DNA of 33,945 bases from SRR20825006_1863, one strand, 5' to 3'; counted from the first letter of the stretch, positions 5,229-33,945 are shown. Program-made: numbers and translations. Notes: generated by a model not told the origin, from the sequence alone.

Positions 5229-5259
5229 GCTGCATACAACACGCTTCACGCTGACACGC
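5229..5259. repeat. Solo heptamer-array arm (GCTGCAT ACAACAC GCTTCAC GCTGACAC GC)
   Basis: 7-bp periodic GCnnCAH units matching the arms at 13126, 14634 and 20267; ends 10 nt before the moeB start on the minus strand. Confidence 0.8.
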
Positions 5260-12007: not shown

Positions 12008-12083
12008 TGGGGTATAGCCAAGTTGGTAAGGCAGCGGGTTTTGATCCCGTTATTCCCAGGTTCGAGTCCTGGTACCCCAGCCA
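12008..12083 (+). tRNA. tRNA-Gln (TTG)
   Basis: TGGGGTA/TACCCCA acceptor stem, anticodon TTG at 12041-12043, GGTTCGAGTCC T-arm, encoded CCA. Confidence 0.98.
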
Positions 12084-13125: not shown

Positions 13126-13276
13126 GCAGCAGGCAACACGCTTCACGCAACAACACGGAGCAGGTTAATTTTGATCTGCTTCTCAAGAGGCCGCGCACCA
13201 GACTTGGGCGCGGCCTCTTGCGTTTAAAACCTGCCCCCACTTGTCGCGTTGTTGCGTGGCGCGTGTTGCGTGATGC
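13126..13276. repeat. 151-bp bipartite heptamer-array element
   Basis: Left GCAGCAG GCAACAC GCTTCAC GCAACAA CACG; right CGCG TTGTTGC GTGGCGC GTGTTGC GTGATGC (imperfect inverted repeat); 87-bp spacer. Confidence 0.9.
13184..13225 (+). terminator. Strong hairpin, possible terminator after prs, at the centre of the repeat element
   Basis: 13-bp perfect stem CAAGAGGCCGCGC/GCGCGGCCTCTTG followed by CGTTT. Confidence 0.55.
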
Positions 13277-13294
13277 CTCCCGAAGGGCCATAAT
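13266..13294 (+). promoter_or_regulatory. Probable rplY promoter
   Basis: TTGCGT-17 bp-CATAAT followed by GC-rich discriminator CGCGCCC, typical of ribosomal-protein promoters. Confidence 0.6.
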
Positions 13295-13299
13295 CGCGC

Positions 13300-13381
13300 C
13301 CCCGCGGAATCCTCCGTGGCTTTATCAACCTCTCTGGCCGACCTGGTCGCGGGAAGCCCGAGAGCATACTGGAGACAGACC
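13300..13381 (+). promoter_or_regulatory. Possible structured rplY (bL25) leader
   Basis: Hairpins CGCGGA..TCCGTG and CTCT..CTGGTCGCGGG..AGAG before the GGAG RBS; L25 autoregulatory leaders are known in Gammaproteobacteria. Family match not verified. Confidence 0.4.
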
Positions 13382-14029
13382 ATGTCCAATGAATTCCTGC
13401 TGAATGCAGAAAGCCGCAGCGATACAGGGAAAGGTGCGAGCCGCCGCCTGCGTCGTCTGCAAGAACGTGTTCCCGGCATCCTCTACGGTGGCGAAGCCGA
13501 GCCGCAGATGATCAGCGTTGAACTGCGCGAGCTGAAAAAAGCCCTGGAAAACGAAGCGTTCTACAGCCACATCCTGACACTGAAGCTGGACGGTGCCAGT
13601 GTGCAGGCCGTACTGCGTGACATGCAGCGTCATCCGGCCAAGGGCCACCCGCTGCACGTGGATCTGCTGCGCGTCGACAAGACCCACAAAATCACCATGA
13701 ACGTTCCCCTGCACTTCATCAACGAAGAAAGCTCTATCGGCGTGAAGAAGCAAGGCGGCGAGATTCAGCACAACTACGCGGAAGTGGAAGTGAGCTGTCT
13801 GCCCCAGGACCTGCCAGAGTTCATCGAAGTGGACATGGCTAACGCTGAGCTGGAGACCGTTATTCACCTGTCCGATCTGAAACTGCCGAAAGGCGTGGAA
13901 CTGACCCAGCTTGCCCTGGGCGACGACCACGACCAGCCGGTAGCTGCGGTTCACCAGCCGAAAGTTCGTGCGTCCGCTGATGACGATGCTGACGAAGCGG
14001 CAGGCGAAGAAGCCTCAGGCGAGGAATAA
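13382..14029 (+). CDS. rplY: 50S ribosomal protein L25 / Ctc (long form)
   Basis: [46 protein letters not shown] 13382 after GGAG. Confidence 0.98.
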
Positions 14030-14037
14030 GACGCACC

Positions 14038-14625
14038 GTGGCGGAACCTGTTCGACTGATCGTGGGCCTGGGCAATCCGGGCCACGAATACGAAGACACC
14101 CGCCACAATGCCGGCGTCTGGTATGTAGACGCCCTGGCCCGACGCCAGGGCGTCTTCCTTACCGAAGACAAGAAATATTTCGGCCTTACCGCCACCTTCT
14201 CCTTTGAAGGCGAAACAATCCGCCTGCTGGTTCCGACCACCTTCATGAACCGCAGTGGTCAGGCCACCGCCGCACTGGCAAACTTCTTCAAGATTCCCGT
14301 TACGCAGATACTGGTTGCTCACGACGAGCTCGACCTGCCACCCGGCTGTGCCCGCTTCAAGCAAGGCGGCGGCCACGGAGGCCACAATGGTCTGCGCGAC
14401 ATCATCAGCCGACATGGCAACAGCCGCGACTTTTACCGGCTACGGCTTGGCATCGGCCACCCCGGCTCTGCCGACCGGGTTACCCCCCACGTGCTGAACA
14501 AACCCTCCAAAGCCGATCGAGACCTGATCGATCGCGCCATCGACGAAGCTGTCCACCACACCCCGGATATGCTCCGCGGCGATCTGAACGGCGCCATGAA
14601 CCATCTCAACGGCTTCAAGGCGTAG
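14038..14625 (+). CDS. pth: Peptidyl-tRNA hydrolase
   Basis: [45 protein letters not shown]. Confidence 0.99.
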
Positions 14626-14633
14626 AGAGAGAC

Positions 14634-14778
14634 CCCTCACGCAACACGCTTCACGCAACAACACGAAGCTTAGCCTCTCTTCATGGCCATGCTTCGGCCC
14701 CGCGCTGCAACCTGGCCGCGGCCTGCCACCTTCCAGCCCACACCACCCCATCCCGCGTTGTAGCTTGTCGCTTGCCGC
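14634..14778. repeat. Bipartite heptamer-array element with mixed arm types
   Basis: Left CCCTCAC GCAACAC GCTTCAC GCAACAA CACG; right CGCG TTGTAGC TTGTCGC TTGCCGC; 88-bp spacer. Confidence 0.85.
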
Positions 14779-14816
14779 TCATGTAGCATTGCGGCCTCGA
14801 AAAATGGAGGTCTGTC

Positions 14817-15908
14817 ATGGGTTTCAAATGCGGTATCGTCGGTCTGCCCAACGTGGGCAAATCCACCCTGTTCAACGCGCTGACCAAAGCGGGTATTGAT
14901 GCCGAGAACTTCCCGTTCTGCACCATTGAGCCCAACACCGGCGTGGTACCGGTGCCAGACCCCCGTCTGGACAAACTCTCCGCCATCGTCAGCCCGGAGC
15001 GGGTCATGCCCGCCACCATGGAATTCGTGGACATTGCCGGCCTGGTCGCTGGCGCCTCCAAAGGCGAAGGCCTGGGCAATAAATTCCTGGCCAACATCCG
15101 TGAAACCGACGCCATCGCTCACGTGGTGCGCTGTTTCGACGATGAAAACGTGATCCACGTATCTGGCAAGGTCTCCCCCCTGGACGATATCGCCGTGATC
15201 AACACCGAGCTGGCCCTGGCCGACCTGGACACGGTGGAAAAAGCCCACCTGCGCGCCACCAAGGCCGCCAAGGGCCAGGACAAGGATGCCAAAGGCTTGC
15301 TGCCGGTACTGGACAAGGTGCTGCCCGCCCTGAACGAAGGCAACCCAGCCCGTTCCGTAGACCTGAATGACGATGAACGCAAAGCCATCAAGAGCCTGAA
15401 CCTGCTGACCTTGAAGCCCACCATGTACATTGCCAACGTGGACGAAGGCGGCTTTGAGGACAACGCCCTGCTGGACGCCGTGCGCGAGCTGGCCGAAACG
15501 GAAAACTCTTCTGTGGTCCCCATCTGCGCCAAGATCGAATCCGAAATTGCCGAACTGGACGACGAAGAAAAAGCCGACTTCCTCGCCGACCTGGGCATGG
15601 AAGAGCCCGGCCTGAACCGGGTCATCCGTGCCGGCTTTAACCTTCTCGGCCTGCAAACCTATTTCACCGCTGGTGTGAAAGAAGTCCGCGCCTGGACGGT
15701 CAAGGTCGGCGCCACCGCGCCCCAGGCTGCAGGCGTGATTCATACGGATTTCGAGAAAGGCTTCATCCGTGCCGAAGTCACCGGCTACGATGATTACATC
15801 GACAACAACGGCGAGCAGGGTGCCAAGGAAGCCGGCAAGTGGCGCCTGGAAGGCAAGGAATACATCGTCAAGGATGGTGACGTGGTGCACTTCCGTTTCA
15901 ACGTATAA
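14817..15908 (+). CDS. ychF: Redox-regulated ATPase YchF
   Basis: [65 protein letters not shown]. Confidence 0.99.
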
Positions 15909-15912
15909 GAAC

Positions 15913-15943
15913 GCTGCGCGCACCACGCTTCATGCAACACGCG
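15913..15943 (+). repeat. Heptamer-array arm (GCTGCGC GCACCAC GCTTCAT GCAACAC GCG)
   Basis: Four GCnnCnH units starting 4 nt after the ychF stop. Confidence 0.85.
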
Positions 15944-15946
15944 AAC

Positions 15947-15978
15947 AAAAAAGGCCGCCCTTCCAGGGCGGCCTTTTT
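15947..15978. terminator. Bidirectional intrinsic terminator between ychF and cysE
   Basis: AAAAAAGGCCGCCCT-tcc-AGGGCGGCCTTTTT between convergent genes. Confidence 0.92.
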
Positions 15979-15980
15979 AT

Positions 15981-16015
15981 TTAGCTATTAATTATTAACT
16001 GTTAACTATTCATTG
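15981..16015 (-). repeat. AT-rich heptamer array
   Basis: TTAGCTA TTAATTA TTAACTG TTAACTA TTCATTG on +, starting 5 nt after the cysE stop on -. Confidence 0.75.
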
Positions 16016-16020
16016 CCCTT

Positions 16021-16788
16021 TTAGTCCGTACCGCCCGCATTCACCGGCTCAAAATCTTCATCTTTCAATTCCGGCAACTTCTCATCACAACCCTGAATAC
16101 CCTGCTTTTTCAGGTTGGTGCAGACCCTATCCAGCTTGTTGTCCACTGCGTGCATATGATCCAGCAAAAGGTGAATCGCTTCGGCCACCGGGTCGGGCAT
16201 GTCGTTGCTGACACCATAGGCCTGGAAGCCGATTTTCTCGGCCATTTCTTGGCGAGTCTTTTCTTTCTCGGTCAACGGATGGCTAATCACCCGGCCCGGG
16301 ATTCCCACCACCGTCGCCCCTTCCGGCACTTCCTTGGTCACCACGGAATTGGAGCCGATCTTGGCATTCTTGTGCACCGTAAACGGCCCCAGCACTTTCG
16401 CGCCTGCGCCGACCACCACACCATCTTCCAGAGTCGGGTGGCGTTTGCCCTTGCTCCAGCTGGTACCACCCAGAGTAACCGAGTGATACAACGTCACGTC
16501 ATCACCGATTTCTGCGGTTTCACCAATCACCACACCCATGCCGTGATCGATAAAGAAACGACGGCCAATTTTGGCACCGGGGTGAATTTCAATACCAGTA
16601 AGCCAGCGCGAAAACGTGGATAGCAGCCGCGCAAGTTGCTTGAAATTACGCGTCCATAACCCATGCGCCAACCGATGAAAAAGCACCGCGTGCAAACCGG
16701 GATAGTTGAGCAACACTTCCAGCGTATTGCGGGCCGCCGGGTCCCGGTGAAAGACCGACCGGATGTCCTCGCGCACTTGATCAAACAT
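16021..16788 (-). CDS. cysE: Serine O-acetyltransferase
   Basis: [46 protein letters not shown] hexapeptide repeats. Confidence 0.97.
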
Positions 16789-16859
16789 AACTACCTCAAC
16801 TTCGAAGCCTTGGGCCTGGGCCCGTTAGGATGACGCCAACAACCGTTTGTTACGGCGCA

Positions 16860-17642
16860 TCAGCCATCATCTCGCGGCATTTTTTTCTCCAACGCCACCA
16901 ATACGCCCCGCAAAATGCTCATTTCCATTTTGTCCGGTCGGGCGCGCATAAACAAACGGCGCATGCGTGTCATCACCTGCCCGGGCTGTTCCGGATTGAG
17001 GAATCCACTCTGTGCCATCACCTTTTCCAGATGGTCCAGAAAACCCGATACCGCTTCGTTGGTGGCCGGCGGCTCATCCCAGAACATTTCCGGCAACGGC
17101 ATGACCTCGCGACGGGAACGGGATTCCTGCAGCTCAAAGTCGTCCCCCAGCAACGCCAGGCGCAGCTCGTAGCTGATTAATTGGACCGCCGACGCCACAT
17201 TCAAGACCCCATACTCGGGGTTGGTGGGCACGCTCACATGAAGATTGCAGCGGCGTAGCTCGTCGTTGGTCAGGCCCCGATCTTCACGACCGAACAACAC
17301 CGCGATGCGAGTATCCTGCGGTGCATTGGCTAAATCGTGAGACAGCTGTGCAGCCAGCTGGCGTGGTGTCAGGCAAGGCCACGGGATACGCCGCTGACGG
17401 GCGCTGGTGCCAATCACCAGGGTGGCGCCTTCCAGGGCCTCGTCCACGCTATTGCATACCTGTGCAGCCTCCAGCACATCGCCGGCACCAGAGGCGCGCG
17501 CCGTCGCCTCCACACTGGGGTAGGCCTGCGGCTGCACCAGACGCAGATCCGATAGGCCCATGGTTTTCATGGCCCGGGCAGCCGCGCCGATATTGCCGGG
17601 GTGGGAGGTTTCCACCATCACAATGCGCACATTTTCCAACAT
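16860..17642 (-). CDS. trmJ: tRNA (cytidine/uridine-2'-O)-methyltransferase, SPOUT family
   Basis: ETSHPGNIGAAARAMKTMG, GTSAR, FGREDRGLTNDEL, LNVASAVQ; divergent from suhB. Confidence 0.95.
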   Translation of the reverse strand: MLENVRIVMVETSHPGNIGAAARAMKTMGLSDLRLVQPQAYPSVEATARASGAGDVLEAAQVCNSVDEALEGATLVIGTSARQRRIPWPCLTPRQLAAQLSHDLANAPQDTRIAVLFGREDRGLTNDELRRCNLHVSVPTNPEYGVLNVASAVQLISYELRLALLGDDFELQESRSRREVMPLPEMFWDEPPATNEAVSGFLDHLEKVMAQSGFLNPEQPGQVMTRMRRLFMRARPDKMEMSILRGVLVALEKKMPRDDG

Positions 17643-17706
17643 GGGAGGCCTCTCATTAAAAAAGGCGCTAATCTTAACACGGCGGCTGCCCTGATCGCGC
17701 GGGCTC

Positions 17707-17715
17707 TGCTACAAT
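17707..17715 (+). promoter_or_regulatory. Extended -10 element of the probable suhB promoter
   Basis: TGcTACAAT followed by GC-rich CCGCGCCCC. Confidence 0.6.
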
Positions 17716-17755
17716 CCGCGCCCCGGAACGGGAACCCCGCGTTTCCCCGCCCCGC

Positions 17756-17766
17756 GCTCTTTAACA
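17756..17766 (+). promoter_or_regulatory. boxA (NusB/NusE site) in the suhB leader
   Basis: Exact GCTCTTTAACA 35 nt upstream of the suhB ATG; a boxA in suhB leaders is an established Nus-factor autoregulatory element. Confidence 0.85.
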
Positions 17767-17801
17767 CCGTTACGCCACACGTCATATTGAGGATAGATGC
17801 C

Positions 17802-18620
17802 ATGCATGCGCCGCAAGTGAATATCGCCCTGCGAGCCGCCCGTCAGGCGGGAAATCTGATTCGCAGAGCTGCTGAAAGCAGTGATCCCGTGTCTGTCACG
17901 AAAAAGGGCATGAACGACTTCGTCACCGAAGTGGATCGCGCTGCGGAAGCGCGCATCATCGATGTGATTCGCAAGGCCTACCCGGACCACAGCATTCTAG
18001 CTGAGGAATCCGGTGTTATCGAAGGCAGTGGCGACGGTAAAGACTGCCAGTGGATTATCGACCCATTGGACGGCACTACCAACTTCATCCATGGTTTCCC
18101 CCAGTACTGCATCTCCATTGCCCTCAAATTCAAAGGCAAAATCGAGCATGCAGTCATTTACGATCCCAACCGCGACGAAGAATTCACCGCCAGCCGTGGC
18201 CGTGGCGCCGCCCTCAATGGCCGCCGTATTCGCTGCACCAACCGAGCAGGTCTGGATGGCTGTCTGATTGGCACCGGCTTCCCTTTCCGCAAGGACCAGG
18301 CCCCACACATGGACGCCTATCTGGGTATGTTCGCCGATATCGCCGCGTCCACCGCCGGCCTGCGCCGTCCCGGCTCTGCTGCCCTGGACCTGGCCTGGCT
18401 GGCCGCCGGACGGCTGGACGGCTTCTTTGAATTCGGCCTGGCAGAATGGGACATGGCCGCAGGCGTACTGCTAATTACCGAAGCTGGCGGCCTGGTTGGC
18501 GACCTGAGCGGTGGCCACAAGTACCTGGAAAGCGGCGGTATCGTAGCCGGCAGCCCGAAAGTCTTTAAGGGCTTGCTGCAAAAAATCAAACCTCACCTGA
18601 ATGATAAACTGAAACGCTAA
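17802..18620 (+). CDS. suhB: Inositol monophosphatase family / Nus factor SuhB
   Basis: DFVTEVD..AE, WIIDPLDGTTNF.HG, RRPGSAALDLA, WD.AAG; ATG 17802 after GAGG. Confidence 0.96.
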   Translation: MHAPQVNIALRAARQAGNLIRRAAESSDPVSVTKKGMNDFVTEVDRAAEARIIDVIRKAYPDHSILAEESGVIEGSGDGKDCQWIIDPLDGTTNFIHGFPQYCISIALKFKGKIEHAVIYDPNRDEEFTASRGRGAALNGRRIRCTNRAGLDGCLIGTGFPFRKDQAPHMDAYLGMFADIAASTAGLRRPGSAALDLAWLAAGRLDGFFEFGLAEWDMAAGVLLITEAGGLVGDLSGGHKYLESGGIVAGSPKVFKGLLQKIKPHLNDKLKR

Positions 18621-18644
18621 ACACCCGCCCCGCCTTGCTTTGCG

Positions 18645-18674
18645 CCCTTTCCTCCTCAGCGGGGAAAGGGTTTT
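18645..18674 (+). terminator. Intrinsic terminator after suhB
   Basis: CCCTTTCCTC-ctcagc-GGGGAAAGGG followed by TTTT. Confidence 0.8.
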
Positions 18675-18805
18675 CCTTACCTTATTTCCCGCCCTGTTTT
18701 GTAAAAACTCCTTAGACTTCAATACGAAAGTGCTGCCTGTGGCATGGACATCTCGGCACGCTTTGCTAGCGTGTCAGGTATAACGGTTCAGCAAGGAGAC
18801 GCTTC

Positions 18806-20263
18806 ATGGCAACGGTTTCTCTCACGGACAACGCCCTGTTCCGCCAACAGTGCTACATCAATGGCCAGTGGTGTGATGCTGACGACGGCGCCACTTTTAC
18901 GGTCGATAACCCGGCCAACGGCGAAGACATCGGTACCTCCCCCCGCATGGGCGAGGCCGAGACCCGCCGCGCCATCGACGCCGCCCATCAGGCGTTCCCC
19001 GGCTGGCGCGACAAGACCGCCGCCGAACGCGCCAACCTGCTGATGGCCTGGCACGACCTGATGATGGAGCACCAGGAAGATCTGGGGCGCCTGATGACCC
19101 TGGAGCAAGGCAAACCCCTCCCTGAAGCCAAAGGGGAAATCGCCTATTCAGCGTCTTTCCTGAAATGGTTTGCGGAAGAAGCGCGCCGGGCCTATGGCGA
19201 CACCATTCCCGCTTCCAAACCCGGCCAGCAGATCGTGGTGATCAAGCAGCCCATCGGGGTCACCGCCGCGATCACGCCCTGGAACTTTCCCTCCTCGATG
19301 ATTACCCGTAAAGCCGGGGCGGCATTGGCCGCAGGCTGCACCATGGTAGTCAAACCCGCCAGCGCCACCCCGTATTCCGCTCTGGCACTGGCTGAGCTGG
19401 CAGAGCGGGCCGGGATTCCCGCCGGTGTTTTCAACGTGATCACCGGCAGTGCCGGAGCTATTTCCACCGCGATTACCGACTCCCCTGTCGTCCGCAAGCT
19501 GAGCTTCACCGGCTCCACCGAAGTGGGCAGCCAGCTGATGGCCCAGTGCGCCAAACACATTCAGAAAGTCTCACTGGAGCTGGGTGGCAATGCCCCCTTC
19601 CTGGTGTTCGACGACGCCAACCTGGATAAAGCCGTGGAAGGCGCCATGGCCAGCAAATTTCGCAATACGGGCCAAACCTGCGTCTGTGTGAACCGTTTCC
19701 TGGTACAGGAAAGCATCCACGATGCCTTTGTGGAGAAATTCAAGGTCGCCATTGAAGCCATGAAAGTGGGCGATGGCTTTGACGAAGGCGTGTCCCAGGC
19801 CGCGCTGATCAACCGGGGCGCCTCCGACAAAGTCATGGAACATCTGGAAGATGCATTGGGCAAAGGCGCCCGAGTCATCACCGGCGGCCAGCGCCACGAA
19901 CGGGGCGGCAGCTTTGTGCAGCCGACATTGATCACCGACGTCTCCACCGATGCCCAGCTCTGTCAGGACGAAACCTTTGGTCCGCTGGCGGCCATCATTC
20001 CCTTTAAAACGGAAGAAGACGCCATCCGCATCGCCAACGACACCCCCTATGGGCTGGCAGCGTACTTCTACAGCGACAACATCCACCGCTGCTGGCGCGT
20101 GGCAGAAGCACTGGAAAGCGGCATGGTCGGCGTCAATGAAGGCCTGATATCCAACGCCACCGCACCGTTTGGCGGGGTCAAGGAATCCGGTCTGGGCCGC
20201 GAAGGCTCTCACCAGGGCATGGAAGAATACCTGGAAACGAAATACCTGTGCATGGGAAGTTAA
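18806..20263 (+). CDS. gabD: NAD(P)-dependent succinate-semialdehyde dehydrogenase family protein
   Basis: ITPWNFP, FTGSTEVG, LELGGNAP, GQTCVCVN (catalytic Cys), ETFGP, APFGGVKESGLGREGS; AAGGAG RBS. Exact substrate is uncertain. Confidence 0.9.
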   Translation: MATVSLTDNALFRQQCYINGQWCDADDGATFTVDNPANGEDIGTSPRMGEAETRRAIDAAHQAFPGWRDKTAAERANLLMAWHDLMMEHQEDLGRLMTLEQGKPLPEAKGEIAYSASFLKWFAEEARRAYGDTIPASKPGQQIVVIKQPIGVTAAITPWNFPSSMITRKAGAALAAGCTMVVKPASATPYSALALAELAERAGIPAGVFNVITGSAGAISTAITDSPVVRKLSFTGSTEVGSQLMAQCAKHIQKVSLELGGNAPFLVFDDANLDKAVEGAMASKFRNTGQTCVCVNRFLVQESIHDAFVEKFKVAIEAMKVGDGFDEGVSQAALINRGASDKVMEHLEDALGKGARVITGGQRHERGGSFVQPTLITDVSTDAQLCQDETFGPLAAIIPFKTEEDAIRIANDTPYGLAAYFYSDNIHRCWRVAEALESGMVGVNEGLISNATAPFGGVKESGLGREGSHQGMEEYLETKYLCMGS

Positions 20264-20266
20264 GAC

Positions 20267-20421
20267 GCTGCATGCAACACGCTTCACGCAACAACACGAG
20301 GCAATGCCTGTAATAACGCATACCCTCGAGCTTCGCGCATCAACGCGAGCACGCGGAGACAAGACGTGAAGCCAACACCACACGCAAGGCGCGTTGTTGC
20401 GTGCAGCGTGGAGCATGCTGC
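20267..20421. repeat. 155-bp bipartite heptamer-array element
   Basis: Left GCTGCAT GCAACAC GCTTCAC GCAACAA CACG; right CGCG TTGTTGC GTGCAGC GTGGAGC ATGCTGC; 91-bp spacer. Confidence 0.9.
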
Positions 20422-20437
20422 GTTAAAGGAGTTAAGG

Positions 20438-21589
20438 ATGACGAAACGGCTAAACATCGCCCTGCTCCCCGGCGACGGCATCGGCCCTGAAGTCATGGCC
20501 GTGGCCGAGCAGGCACTGACGCTGCTGATTGACCGCTTTCAGTTGCCGCTGTCCTACACCTCCTTCCCCTGGCCGTCCCACGCCTGGCATCAACAACACG
20601 GGCAGATGATGCCGGATGATGGCGTCGACCAGCTACGCGCTTTTGACGCTATTTTGTTGGGGGCACTCGGCGACCCGGGGCCACTGGATGATCCGGACCG
20701 TTTTGTGCTGCCCGACAGCATTTCTCTCTCGCCACTACTGGCGCTGCGCAAACAACTGGACCTGTGGGCCTGTGAGCGGCCAGCCCGCTGGCAACCCGGC
20801 GCGCCCCAATACCTCAGCGATCCACGCGCCAACGATGTGGACATGCTGGTGATTCGCGAAAACAGCGAAGGTGAGTACAGCAATCAGGGCGGCCGCCTGC
20901 GGGCTGGCACACCCCACGAGGTAGCCACCCAGGTAGAAGTGTTCACTGCCACCGCCACCGAACGGCTCATTCGCCATGCCTTTGAACGAGCCCGCCAACG
21001 GGCCGCCCAGCGCGATCTGCCGCGTCAGTTCAAAGACGAAAAAAACGCCCAGGTATGCCTGATCACCAAGCGCAACGCGCAACCTTTCTGGGGCGACCTG
21101 TACACCGAAACTTTCCTGCGCCTGGCTCGGGAATACCCGGACGTGGATACCCATCATGAACTGGTCGACGCCGCCTGCATGAAATTCGTGCAGTGCCCAT
21201 GGCGCTTCGATGTGGTGGTGGCCAGCAACCTGCACGGCGACATTCTCACCGATCTGGCTGCAGTGCTCTGCGGCGGCCCCGGGCTGGCCCCGTCCGCCAA
21301 CCTGAACCCGGCCGACAGCGACATCCCGGCGTTATTCGAACCGGTCCACGGCAGTGCCCCGGACATCGCCGGACAAAACCTGGCCGACCCCCGCGCCACC
21401 CTGCTCAGCCTCGCCATGACCCTGGAATGGCTCTCCCCTCACCACCCGGCTCTGAGCAATGCGGCACAACATCTGCATGACACCGTAAAGGCGGACCTGG
21501 CGAAAGAAGGAAACACGCCGGCACAGCATTCGCAAAAGAGTGGCACCCGGGAAACAGGACAACGGCTTTATGCATTGCTGGCCCCGTAG
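20438..21589 (+). CDS. Isocitrate/isopropylmalate dehydrogenase family, tartrate/D-malate dehydrogenase-like
   Basis: PGDGIGPEV, RENSEGEY, DVVVASNLHGDILTDL, FEPVHGSAPDIAG; ATG 20438 after AAGGAG (the ORF start at 20366 lies inside the repeat). Confidence 0.88.
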   Translation: MTKRLNIALLPGDGIGPEVMAVAEQALTLLIDRFQLPLSYTSFPWPSHAWHQQHGQMMPDDGVDQLRAFDAILLGALGDPGPLDDPDRFVLPDSISLSPLLALRKQLDLWACERPARWQPGAPQYLSDPRANDVDMLVIRENSEGEYSNQGGRLRAGTPHEVATQVEVFTATATERLIRHAFERARQRAAQRDLPRQFKDEKNAQVCLITKRNAQPFWGDLYTETFLRLAREYPDVDTHHELVDAACMKFVQCPWRFDVVVASNLHGDILTDLAAVLCGGPGLAPSANLNPADSDIPALFEPVHGSAPDIAGQNLADPRATLLSLAMTLEWLSPHHPALSNAAQHLHDTVKADLAKEGNTPAQHSQKSGTRETGQRLYALLAP

Positions 21590-21723
21590 CATCAGCCAGT
21601 AACGTCAATTCACCAGCGAGGCGTATTCCCACGCCCCGCGGGCACAGCGCTGCAAAGGTGGGCGACAAAACCAGCCACCCGCAGCAGGCAACGACGGCAA
21701 TGAGCAATGAGAAAGGAGGCACC

Positions 21724-22971
21724 ATGAGTCATTTGTCCCCCTTACTGGTACAGTCCAGCGGGATTTGCGCAGAGCGTGGCGAAGGTAGCTGGCTCTATGA
21801 TGAAAAAGGCAACCGCTGGCTGGACTTCACCTCCGGCATCGGCGTGACCTCCACCGGCCATTGCCACCCCAAAGTGGTCGCAGCAACCCAGGCCCAGGTG
21901 GGCAAACTGGTCCATGCCCAATACGCCACCGTCACCCACCCCAACATGCTGGCCCTCACCGACCGGCTCTATGAGCACCTGCCCAAGGGGCTTGATGCGG
22001 TGGCCTTTTCCAACTCCGGCAGTGAGTCCGTGGAAGCGGCCATTCGCCTGGCGCGACAGGCCACCGGCCGCACCAACCTCATCGCCTTTCGCGGCGGCTT
22101 CCACGGCCGCACCCTGGCCGCCGCCTCGCTAACCACCTCTACCAGCAAGGTACGGACTGGTTGGCAGCCGCTCATGGCCGGGGTCAGCATTGCACCATTT
22201 CCCCATGCTTACCGCTATAAGCAAGACATGGATCAGTGTGTCACCGACTGCCTCAACGAGCTGGATCATATCTTCGCCACCGAGTGCAACCCGGCCGACA
22301 CTGCCGCCATGATCATCGAGCCGGTACAGGGTGAGTACGGCTACTACCCTGCCTCTGCCGCCTTCATGAAGGGGCTGCGTGAGCGCTGTGACAAACATGG
22401 CATCCTGCTGATTGCCGATGAAATCCAGGCCGGTTTCGGGCGCACGGGCAAGTTCTGGAGCCACGAACATTTCGATGTAAAACCCGACATCATTGTCACC
22501 GCCAAGGGGCTGGCCAGCGGCTACCCGCTCTCCGCCATCGCCGCCAGCCGTGACCTGATGACCCATGGCTATCCCGGCTCACAGGGCGGCACCTACGGCG
22601 CCAACGCGGTGGCCTGCGCGGCGGCCCTGGCCACACTGGACGTCATTGAGGAAGAGCAACTGGTGCCTCGCGCCGACAAGCTCGGCCAGCAGCTGCTCAC
22701 CCACTTACAGGGCCTGCAAAAGCAGCATGACTGTATCGATGAAATTCGCGGCATGGGACTCATGCTGGGCCTGGAAATTGTCAGCGCCCCGCACACTCCC
22801 GATGGCGAGCGTGCTGGCAAGCTGCTCAAGCATTGCGAAAACAACGGCATGCTGATGCTGCGCTGCGGCACTCAGGGGCAAGTGGTACGCTGGTTGCCAC
22901 CGCTCACCGTCACCGAAGCGGAAATCGAAAAAGCGGTAGAACTGTTTGATGCCGCACTGAAAGAAACGTGA
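21724..22971 (+). CDS. Class III PLP aminotransferase (4-aminobutyrate aminotransferase-like)
   Basis: LDFTSGIGV..GHCHP, NSGSE.VE, FHGRT, EPVQGE, DEIQAGFGRTG, TAKG (PLP Lys), GGTYG; ATG after AAGGAGG. Confidence 0.92.
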   Translation: MSHLSPLLVQSSGICAERGEGSWLYDEKGNRWLDFTSGIGVTSTGHCHPKVVAATQAQVGKLVHAQYATVTHPNMLALTDRLYEHLPKGLDAVAFSNSGSESVEAAIRLARQATGRTNLIAFRGGFHGRTLAAASLTTSTSKVRTGWQPLMAGVSIAPFPHAYRYKQDMDQCVTDCLNELDHIFATECNPADTAAMIIEPVQGEYGYYPASAAFMKGLRERCDKHGILLIADEIQAGFGRTGKFWSHEHFDVKPDIIVTAKGLASGYPLSAIAASRDLMTHGYPGSQGGTYGANAVACAAALATLDVIEEEQLVPRADKLGQQLLTHLQGLQKQHDCIDEIRGMGLMLGLEIVSAPHTPDGERAGKLLKHCENNGMLMLRCGTQGQVVRWLPPLTVTEAEIEKAVELFDAALKET

Positions 22972-22976
22972 AGACA

Positions 22977-23126
22977 GCTACAAGCTTCAAGCCACAAGCG
23001 ACAACGCGGTTGAGCACTGTGCCATCCGAGGAACGTAGACACCACGCGCCAGGCAAAGGCGCGGCACAGAACCAGGGAAATGTCAGCCCTTTCCCGTGTT
23101 GCAGCTTAACGCTTGCGGCTTGTCGC
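22977..23126. repeat. 150-bp bipartite heptamer-array element (CAA-type arms)
   Basis: Left GCTACAA GCTTCAA GCCACAA GCGACAA CGCG; right CGTG TTGCAGC TTAACGC TTGCGGC TTGTCGC; 86-bp spacer. Confidence 0.9.
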
Positions 23127-30943: not shown

Positions 30944-32178
<1,235 letters not shown>

Positions 32179-33309
32179 GTTCCTTCAATAAACATGGCAT
32201 CGCCGTAGCTGAAAAAACGGTACTGGGCCTCAATGGCCGCCTGATAGGCGTTCATCACCCGATCACGGCCCGCAAAGGCACTGATCAACATCAGCAGCGT
32301 CGATTTTGGCAGGTGGAAGTTGGTCACGAGAGCATCCACCAGCCGGAACCGGTAACCCGGATAGATAAAGATATCCGTCTCGCCCTGCCCGGTTTGCAAA
32401 CCACCAGACTGGCTGGCCGCTTCCAGCGCCCGCAGCGCGGTCGTTCCAACCGCCACCACCCGGCCACCCCGGGCATGGGCCTGGGCCACCTGTTCAACCA
32501 GGGAGTCAGGTATCTGGTAGCGCTCACTGTGCATGTGATGGTCTTCCACCTTGTCCACGCGCACCGGCTGGAACGTCCCTGCTCCTACATGGAGGGTGAC
32601 AAAACCGATATCAACCCCGTGCTGCTCCAGGGCCGCCAGCATCGCATCGTCAAAATGCAGGCCGGCGGTCGGGGCCGCCACAGCGCCGGGTTCGCGGGCA
32701 TAGACCGTTTGGTAGCGCTCCATATCACCATCCTCATCCGGGCGGTCGATATACGGCGGCAACGGCACATGGCCGATTTTCTCCAGGGCCGCCAGCAGAG
32801 TGTCGCAACCTTGGCCCGGCAGCGAGAACTGCAAGACAAACAGGGCGCCACGGCGCCCCGTTACCTGGGCACGAATACCCTCATCAAATTCCAGCCAACT
32901 TCCCGGTTTCGGTGACTTTGAGGCGCGCACGTGGGCGAGCGCCTCGTGGTCATCCACCACCCGCTCGATCAGCACCTCAACCTTGCCACCGCTTTCCTTC
33001 TGGCCAAACAGCCGGGCAGGAATGACGCGGGTATCGTTGAAGATCAGCAAATCACCGGGATGCACATGGGAAAGCAGATCAGGAAACTGCTGATGCAGCA
33101 GCGCATCGCGGGTAAGCGCCAACAGACGCGCATCACGGCGCTCGGCAGGCGGATGGCGGGCAATCAACCCGTCGGGGAGCTCAAAATCAAAATCGTCGAC
33201 GTTCACGTACTGTACCGGCACGGAAGTTCAAGGGGCGCCAAGGATACCTGCTAAACCCCCTCACACCAAGCGGTCTACGTCGCCGGTACGCCAGGGAGTG
33301 AGGCGCGAT

Positions 33310-33874: not shown

Positions 33875-33945
33875 TGGTACCAGAGGCCGGACTTGAACCG
33901 GCACGCCCGTGAAGGCAACGGATTTTGAATCCGTCGTGTCTACCA
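33875..33945 (-). tRNA. tRNA-Leu (CAA), 5' end outside the window
   Basis: On -: TGGTAGACACG-ACGGA TT CAA AA TCCGT, long variable arm, GGTTCAAGTCC, ends ACCA. Confidence 0.95.

Follow-up and report, generated by a model that had tools for sequence, protein, structure and literature searches.

Heptameric repeats in bacterial intergenic DNA are known from cyanobacteria as short tandemly repeated repetitive (STRR) sequences. Other intergenic families, such as the enterobacterial ERIC/IRU elements (repetitive intergenic consensus/intergenic repeat units), the Correia elements and the RUP (repeat unit of pneumococcus), are about 100-200 bp long with inverted ends and a central palindrome, lie near stop codons and can form stems in mRNA; they have a conserved sequence, defined termini and target duplications. 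The integron attC site is situated after a stop codon and ahead of the following ribosome-binding site, and consists of outer and inner box pairs with a variable terminal loop, its geometry counting for more than its sequence. Here we examine four intergenic elements (elements 1-4) in a DNA stretch of 33,945 nucleotides from SRR20825006_1863 (the window), each consisting of two inward-facing arms of degenerate heptamers separated by a spacer. The TAACTGA repeats of Beggiatoaceae are described as intergenic, with a 7-nt period, polarised towards starts and stops and occurring in 'split' sets of related 7-mers; they are given as direct repeats with one inverted case, and the terms 'helix bundle' and 'intervening' are absent from the main text (PMC4679880). 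REPINs, doublets of repetitive extragenic palindromic (REP) sequences, are described as extragenic, non-autonomous and inverted, with spacings of 71 and 110 bp and a less conserved spacer (PMC3116915). For the Coxiella intervening sequence (IVS), a 28-bp stem and cleavage by RNase III are reported (PMC4990558).

The elements of the window differ from intergenic heptamer repeats by their paired arms and fixed-distance boxes, and from ERIC/IRU, Correia and RUP elements in that only boxes and lengths are conserved and several end families exist. Unlike attC, they have no RYYYAAC/GTTRRRY cores, their box spacing is 33 instead of 5-6 nt, and they are flanked by core housekeeping operons instead of a cassette array. 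As inverted doublets with a modal spacing they resemble REPINs, but their ends are degenerate tandem heptamers plus boxes and not palindromic REPs. With the cassettes of four-helix-bundle (FHB, PF05635; 23S rRNA-IVP/S23p, Avd-like) genes and with 23S rRNA IVSs that carry an open reading frame (ORF), they have in common inverted ends with a potential stem of ~28-35 bp; they differ in having no ORF, in lying outside rRNA and in an added core with a ruler. The plan is like that of a REPIN or a miniature inverted-repeat transposable element (MITE) and the ends are like those of an IVS, while each class has defining tests that the elements fail. Rfam returned two tRNAs only for the window at the gathering threshold, and nothing at E 0.1 for 12 element loci; paired heptamer arms with a ruler core were not described in the literature searched, outside whose scope lay supplements and most subscription journals that could list the family. 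The sequence-only reading had likewise recognised no described element. The best reading is that the elements belong to the heptamer-armed FHB cassette class, with the bipartite ruler ends as a lineage-specific addition, and the family suggests a selfish element of an undescribed kind that takes its place immediately behind stop codons.

All four elements were found where they had been noted (Table 1). Re-measurement gave the same spacers of 87, 88, 91 and 86 nt, with 7, 8, 3 and 5 nt from stop codon to left arm; in elements 3 and 4, AAGGAG begins 4 nt past the end of the right arm. Runs of at least three GCnnCAH units number 10 in the window, compared with 0 in 100 order-4 Markov shuffles; elements 1 and 2 have a degenerate first unit, and element 4 has one degenerate unit in its right arm. 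The spacers had been thought alike in a short central motif only. This motif is real but had been under-read: it is a pair of CGCG boxes, each 32-35 nt from its outer box. In G001, the nearest genome (~99% identical over the 20 kb compared), arm triplets gave 101 + 104 matches as against 1 + 1 with the reversed pattern, which confirmed that the four elements belong to a genome-wide family. An arm-to-arm scan allowing spacers of 0-400 nt yielded 18 matches in G001, one internal to the element 3 ortholog; 15 of the 17 others had spacers of 84-95 nt, so the genome-wide peak expected near 86-91 bp was indeed present. In G007, spacers measured 85-93 nt in 14 of 23 matches and 104-233 nt in the other nine, and none was shorter. 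Short hairpins with the same arms and without the core also occurred.

The four boxes are common to all long-class copies. Each half comprises 3-5 heptamers, an RCRCG box, a near-unique linker of 32-35 nt and a YCGCG box, and two halves face each other, usually over 13-14 nt, giving the 84-95-nt spacer. Successive box distances were 33.7 ± 2.1, 14.0 ± 1.9 and 33.2 ± 1.7 nt in 64 of 67 de-duplicated cores of an ascertained set, the middle distance being 13 or 14 nt in 50 of these ascertained cores. When 784 kb were fetched by position irrespective of the core, 54 YCGCG boxes lay 31-37 nt from the 111 arm-anchored RCRCG sites, with a peak at 32-34 nt, whereas 6461 control sites gave an expectation of ~3; 38 of the 111 sites had no YCGCG within 80 nt. 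The lower edge of linker length is sharp (9 at 31 nt, 67 at 32 nt). The half-plus-box pattern gave an uninformative count in five other genomes, below the scan's own control. Longer forms keep both halves, with a middle made up of a more recent element, a REPIN or a unique stretch of 66-160 nt; one such unique middle is single-copy and occurs only at the same site, in three of five genomes. It follows that the half is the invariant and that spacer length is merely modal. The claim of a fixed-length spacer therefore stands for each half but not for the whole spacer, for which 86-91 nt is the commonest doublet.

The core pattern matched 23 of the 24 genomes of the genus. A stricter, arm-free core pattern matched 21 of these 24 genomes, 2/19 genomes of one sister genus and 0/27 genomes of seven other genera. 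A species-wide scan, in which 80 loci were fetched from at least 119 matches to a strict pattern that could miss cores with other boxes, located arms at 23 loci titled Alcanivorax, Alloalcanivorax or Alcanivoracaceae and at five from two vaguely titled metagenome-assembled genomes; 51 fetched core-pattern loci were without arms, and one was dropped as too near a contig end. Among the loci fetched, the arm-bearing core was thus found only in what appear to be Alcanivoracaceae-type genomes, and because of the distribution of the core across genomes the host of the window is probably a marine Alcanivorax, a harmless genus that can be cultivated. Carriage by phages or plasmids was rejected: a full-core scan of such replicons gave one chance match, a scan for halves gave 25 matches, of which one had a real arm and lay on host-like DNA beside an integrase-like gene, and blastn against plasmids and phages gave none.

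The core is carried on at least six arm families (GCnnCAY, GCnnCAA, GTTnnAA, GCTnnTA, AATnAAT and GGATGCA), and linkers do not cluster by arm family (0.36 vs 0.34); arms and core are separate modules. Left and right arms agree in family in 59 of 64 cores, compared with 20.5 when shuffled, and arms were no more complementary to their own partners than to other arms of their family (0.73/0.83/0.79 vs 0.73/0.82/0.75). The linker consensus is weak, and linkers do not pair with each other beyond six bases beside the inner box (0.54 vs 0.45 shuffled). Folding gave z values of -8.5, -7.0 and -3.3 for three elements, which form long rods, and a poor value of -0.9 for element 2. RNAalifold on 12 copies recovered the arm stem only, with no net covariation (covariation term +0.6). 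Because the R/Y position of the outer box forms an A-C mismatch in 4 of the 12 copies, the outer boxes appear to be kept as sequence and not for pairing. In 64 orthologous pairs, partly ascertained, the inner box mismatched at 1.6%, compared with 13.5% in linkers, 10.6% in loops and 9.2% in coding flanks; in a non-circular set of 10 pairs from six elements the values were 0/100 for the inner box, 48/557 (8.6%) for linkers, 16% for loops and 7.2% for coding flanks. Boxes and spacing are thus conserved while linkers drift, which supports the earlier suggestion that geometry matters more than sequence. The RNA scaffold offered alongside it gained little, given the lack of covariation and of copy-specific complementarity in arms or linkers. 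The half as a hairpin of its own, with outer box pairing to inner box, was rejected as well, since only few halves pair in this way and 220 halves folded at -11.7 kcal/mol as against -11.2 for chimeric ones (p 0.57). Long pure heptamer runs (GCTACAA and TTTCGAG, up to ~30 units) were seen in G013, G017 and G014 and at L142, L155 and L156, also directly upstream of FHB genes, and could make arms phase-variable.

A classical MITE, with terminal inverted repeats as the substrate of a DDE transposase, would likewise have inverted ends, an intergenic location, a modal length of ~150 bp and cargo between its ends. We nevertheless find this explanation highly improbable. The ends are interchangeable among the arm families and have no fixed terminus, as arm length varies by whole heptamers between alleles; no target duplication was visible by eye at near-empty alleles that come from diverged genomes or look like deletions, near-identical copies were not seen in the part of the genomes covered, and no transposase lay between arms in spans of up to 1600 nt at the fetched loci or of 180-500 nt in the genus scans. 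The chance that the elements are of the REPIN type, mobilised by a REP-associated tyrosine transposase (RAYT, of the HUH class), is slimmer still. The inverted doublet with modal spacing is as in REPINs (PMC3116915), PF01797 genes are present in 22 of 24 genomes, and REPINs often lie within the element loop; but the RAYT-type genes are flanked by GTAG REPs, the core occurs at 3 of 24 such loci and never adjacent to the gene, and the halves are not palindromic, as the folding comparison above shows, and are without a GTAG or CGTC tag. The RAYT was consequently rejected as a partner: the 24 PF01797 loci have GTAG REPs and no adjacent half. True GTAG REPINs coexist with the elements and insert into them.

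Whole spacers turn over at individual sites. Depending on the strain, one and the same site can be filled by an unrelated element, an FHB cassette or a REPIN, or be almost empty. Across 20-24 genomes, the alleles listed for the sites of elements 1-4 included many unrelated occupants and a few near-empty spacers. In G001 the place of element 4 is taken by an entirely different element, with AGTTRAA arms and the same plan of boxes, and the flank differences are confined to ~20 nt upstream and ~60 nt downstream (per 20 nt: 2, 0, 0 upstream; 3, 7, 3, 0, 1, 0 downstream). G001 has a different variant of element 1, while genomes of 86-94% identity carry the allele of the window, indicating that alleles cross species lines. 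Runs X2 and X3 have the element 1 core of the window with a changed right end (13260-13286) that appears to match G001, which suggests recombination within the element. The occupants of a further site, compared in 24/24 genomes, were cores with arms of two families, other elements with arms, REPINs or near-empty spacers; here the arm-bearing alleles abut the same flank, which we read as a TAG stop of the opposite strand. Where cores at the same site differed in arm family, they were essentially unrelated (identity 0.58, background 0.56; 66 pairs, with several sites counted in both orientations), and sites have therefore been refilled repeatedly and independently. The same values reject the idea, suggested by the prs site, that arms are rewritten on a resident core; core-less alleles at that site have an ordinary terminator instead. 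At L412, L417, L434 and L436, the right half of an older element remains where a newer full element has come in, and lone and chimeric halves are common. With respect to the comparison of orthologous sites that had been proposed, whole elements do replace one another at one site, but near-empty sites are few and no target duplication was visible there by eye.

Nesting was observed at several loci. A complete TTTCGAG-armed mini-element lies within the core loop at L194 (G001:C8:108506-108724) and L428, and at L437 such a mini-element sits inside a REPIN that is itself placed between two inner hairpins. At G001:C39 ~182470 there is a plain core between the ends, where G020 has ~500 nt of AT-rich, partly masked DNA resembling ORF fragments. 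A small two-gene module, which we take to be YefM-YoeB toxin-antitoxin-like, follows an arm at G001:C39 193300-193960, and G020 has a short element there. Two tandem duplications, of 771 and ~2825 nt and each including an element (L328, G007:C1:254694-255621; L336, G007:C1:2611439-2614365), are either real or assembly artefacts.

With regard to context, the elements directly follow stop codons and often end just ahead of the next ribosome-binding site. Crude ORF calls placed 44 of 78 elements between co-directional genes, 25 between convergent and five between divergent genes, with four uncalled, and the elements are thus 3'-end features; the genes flanking elements 1-4 are housekeeping and catabolic, all protein-coding (no rRNA gene). 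Between two stops the inner stem reaches 8 or more of 12 pairs in 10/22 cases, against 7/46 and 1/12 (p 0.027), and this longer stem at converging stops fits co-option as a terminator-like hairpin. A promoter and terminator scan gave counts at chance level and called none of the four elements. In an unlikely but not negligible alternative, the elements spread anciently and are now domesticated cis-acting sequences: the host would keep them as signals by which mRNA is processed, stabilised or terminated, or as sites for one of its DNA-binding proteins or for CGCG methylation, and their turnover would be ordinary intergenic switching. The conservation of the boxes in place, the longer inner stem between stops, the ordinary terminator in core-less prs-site alleles, the lack of recent paralogs, switching that is not element-specific (see below) and the under-representation of CGCG (0.78) all agree with it. 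On the other hand, the elements are dispensable, judging from near-empty alleles and three good genomes with almost none; sites were refilled independently many times, covariation is missing, and the halves of the 78 elements show no polarity relative to transcription, being symmetric to it.

PF05635 genes are present in 21 of the 24 genomes of the genus, and most of the arm families also occur on either side of such a gene. The 30 FHB loci that we read lie in operon spacers between a stop codon and a ribosome-binding site, inside inverted heptamer arms of the GCnnCAH/GCTACAA, AAGTTGA, GCTACGA, TTTCGAG, CGCCTGA, CGTCAGA and AATTAAT types; judging from the flanking sequence, the spacers concerned include metK-ahcY, coaBC-radC, transporter-cysC and glyA-nrdR. 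Between coaBC and radC, the FHB genes of G001 and G020 are not the same and neither are their arms, those of G001 being GCnnCAH arms of which the right one ends CAACACG as in the elements. The G001 FHB protein had one PDB match, the XCC0516 structure 2gsc (five chains, E 2.5e-24), and XCC0516 is described as a toroidal homopentamer (PMC4990558). Within the loci fetched (spans up to 1600 nt), the small ORFs between inward-facing arms were FHB genes only. Near-complete genomes without an FHB gene, G022 and G009, had 5 and 4 four-unit arm matches, compared with 342 and 549 in G013 and G017; the correlation between FHB genes and element load is loose across genomes. At L133 (G010:C53:12493-12801) the FHB gene has one internal TAG stop and intact arms.

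The explanation that we favour, and to which we give an even chance, is that the elements are gene-less passengers of the FHB cassette system, recognised by sequence and geometry, which replace the spacer behind a stop codon and move from strain to strain through short-tract recombination. An FHB oligomer would read the invariant heptamer letters, one unit per protomer, while two boxes at ruler distance would form the site for a cutting and joining protein, either the FHB protein or possibly a second factor. The element would be written in at the 3' end of a gene, where the spacer already present, or the nearer half of an older element, would be lost to it. From then on it would persist at the site, and short-tract recombination in the genes on either side would carry it to other strains and species. 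Where a terminator-like stem is needed, the host would make use of the inner hairpin, and RNase III may cut the long arm stem, as it does in intervening sequences.

Several results weigh against this explanation. The earlier suggestion that such elements might bracket an FHB gene proved right for the arms, which include those of the window's own family, but not for the ruler core, which was present in none of the 30 FHB flanks. No gene was found between halves in 20 G001 regions, 20 regions elsewhere or 29 long forms, and the core is consequently without an autonomous partner in hand. FHB genes and elements also part company between genomes: G005 has three FHB genes and six four-unit arm matches, all at one FHB gene; in the sister genus FHB genes occur in 16/19 genomes and the core pattern in 2/19; and G011 (82% complete) is rich in cores and gave no FHB match. 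No recent copies were apparent: the median linker identity to the nearest paralog in G001 was 0.65 (shuffled 0.59) and only 2/55 reached at least 0.85; medians in G001, G007, G014 and G020, covering part of each genome, were 0.61-0.66 (shuffled 0.53-0.59). Switching of intergenic regions is a general process, and between G001 and G020 (198 kb) it affected 8/22 arm-bearing and 13/50 other spacers, a difference that was not significant (p 0.41), so that element-specific switching was rejected. No target duplication was visible by eye at near-empty alleles, which come from diverged genomes or are deletion-like. In two RNA libraries of one study, assembled contigs run through elements 1 and 2 with no skip; they may include DNA and cannot show transcript ends or levels. 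No element-skipping joint, as excision or splicing would leave, was among those listed for runs X2, X3, X4 and X17. As to the proposed non-autonomous element family, arms in common with FHB genes and replacement of whole elements speak for it, while recent copies and excision were not seen.

In an alternative that we regard as improbable, each half is written de novo and the element is a repair scar: an FHB-associated polymerase would extend both 3' ends at a break or gap beside a stop codon from a noisy template of heptamers, box, ~33 nt and box, followed by head-to-head joining. A related proposal is doubtful to the same degree: an FHB ring, alone or with a host or cryptic polymerase, would extend both DNA ends beside a stop codon by a family-specific run of heptamers and a segment measured by the ruler, and would join the two so that the spacer is overwritten. 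Writing de novo would account for an exact plan in nearly unique copies, arms of one family with no copy-specific complementarity, a variable middle that can hold single-copy DNA, the frequency of lone and chimeric halves and the sharp lower edge of the linker; it is also consistent with AGTT-type arms, which often begin on the AG of a TAG, TGAG or TAAG stop. However, no template locus was found, RVT_1 had no match in the core-rich G007 and G017, 31 ortholog pairs displayed no adenine bias (CT 32, AG 28, GT 19, CG 19, AT 7, AC 7), and loop and linker subfamilies recur, as ordinary descent from a few masters would produce. Mutagenesis like that of diversity-generating retroelements was rejected for the same lack of adenine bias and because RVT_1 occurred in 3/5 genomes and was absent from the two core-rich ones. 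Two adjacent reverse-transcriptase-like ORFs, possibly a defence-associated pair, were noted at L394 and L396 (G001:C10:5650-7529).

Apart from the four elements, of which the noted family was made up, the window contains three arm sites that had been overlooked: the lone arm near moeB, the arm past the ychF stop and the short-class element between queA and tgt (Table 1). Element 1 has its inner boxes on either side of a 13-nt loop within an extended GC-rich stem. Element 2 is a hybrid, with a left arm of the GCnnCAC type and a right arm of the GCnnCAA type, and one arm is 16 nt shorter in G001 and 14 nt shorter in runs X2 and X3. At the convergent ychF/cysE site (15909-16020), each stop has its own forward arm, the heptamer family differs between the two arms, a terminator-like hairpin separates them, and the arm partners differ by genome; the AATTAAT/AGTTAAC family seen on the cysE side also brackets FHB genes in L147-L149. 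The queA frame passes through one arm and stops inside the short element (32130-32185). Compared with the short allele of G007 and G019, this arm looks inserted between TTATTGA and a common 9-mer, the one hint we have that native DNA can acquire arms around it.

Table 1. Positions of the heptamer-armed elements, their boxes and other features in the window
Feature	Position	Strand	Context	Left arm	Right arm	Outer boxes	Inner boxes
Element 1	13126-13276		between prs and rplY leader	13126-13153	13249-13276	CACG 13154-13157, CGCG 13245-13248	CGCG 13192-13195, 13209-13212
Element 2	14634-14778		between pth and ychF	14634-14661	14758-14778	14662-14665, 14754-14757	14701-14704, 14717-14720
Element 3	20267-20421		gabD-like gene; tartrate/isopropylmalate-dehydrogenase-like gene	20267-20294	20394-20421	20295-20298, 20390-20393	20334-20337, 20352-20355
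Element 4	22977-23126		class III aminotransferase; D-2-hydroxyacid dehydrogenase	22977-23004	23099-23126	23005-23008, 23095-23098	23043-23048 (CACGCG), 23060-23063
Lone GCnnCAH arm, without core	5229-5257	+	just upstream of moeB-like start; reverse arm in mRNA sense				
Forward GCnnCAH arm plus GCG	15913-15943	+	4 nt past ychF stop				
Bidirectional terminator-like hairpin	~15946-15979		directly after the arm at 15913-15943				
Forward arm, AATTAAT/AGTTAAC family	15984-16016	-	after stop of convergent cysE				
Short-class element, paired GCnnCAH arms, 44-nt spacer, without inner boxes	32078-32178		between queA and tgt				
tRNA gene	12008-12080						
tRNA gene	33878-33945						

Intergenic 7-nt repeats and PF05635 proteins are both long-standing unknowns, and in this genus there are several arm families with a matching gene for each, together with a sharply defined second signal in the form of boxes 32-35 nt apart. 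Since whole spacers are replaced between near-identical strains, core operons such as prs-rplY-pth-ychF have their terminators and leaders rewritten again and again. If the writing of DNA ends by an FHB ring were true, it would amount to a telomerase-like selfish system in bacteria, which would explain the heptamer repeats and give PF05635 a function.

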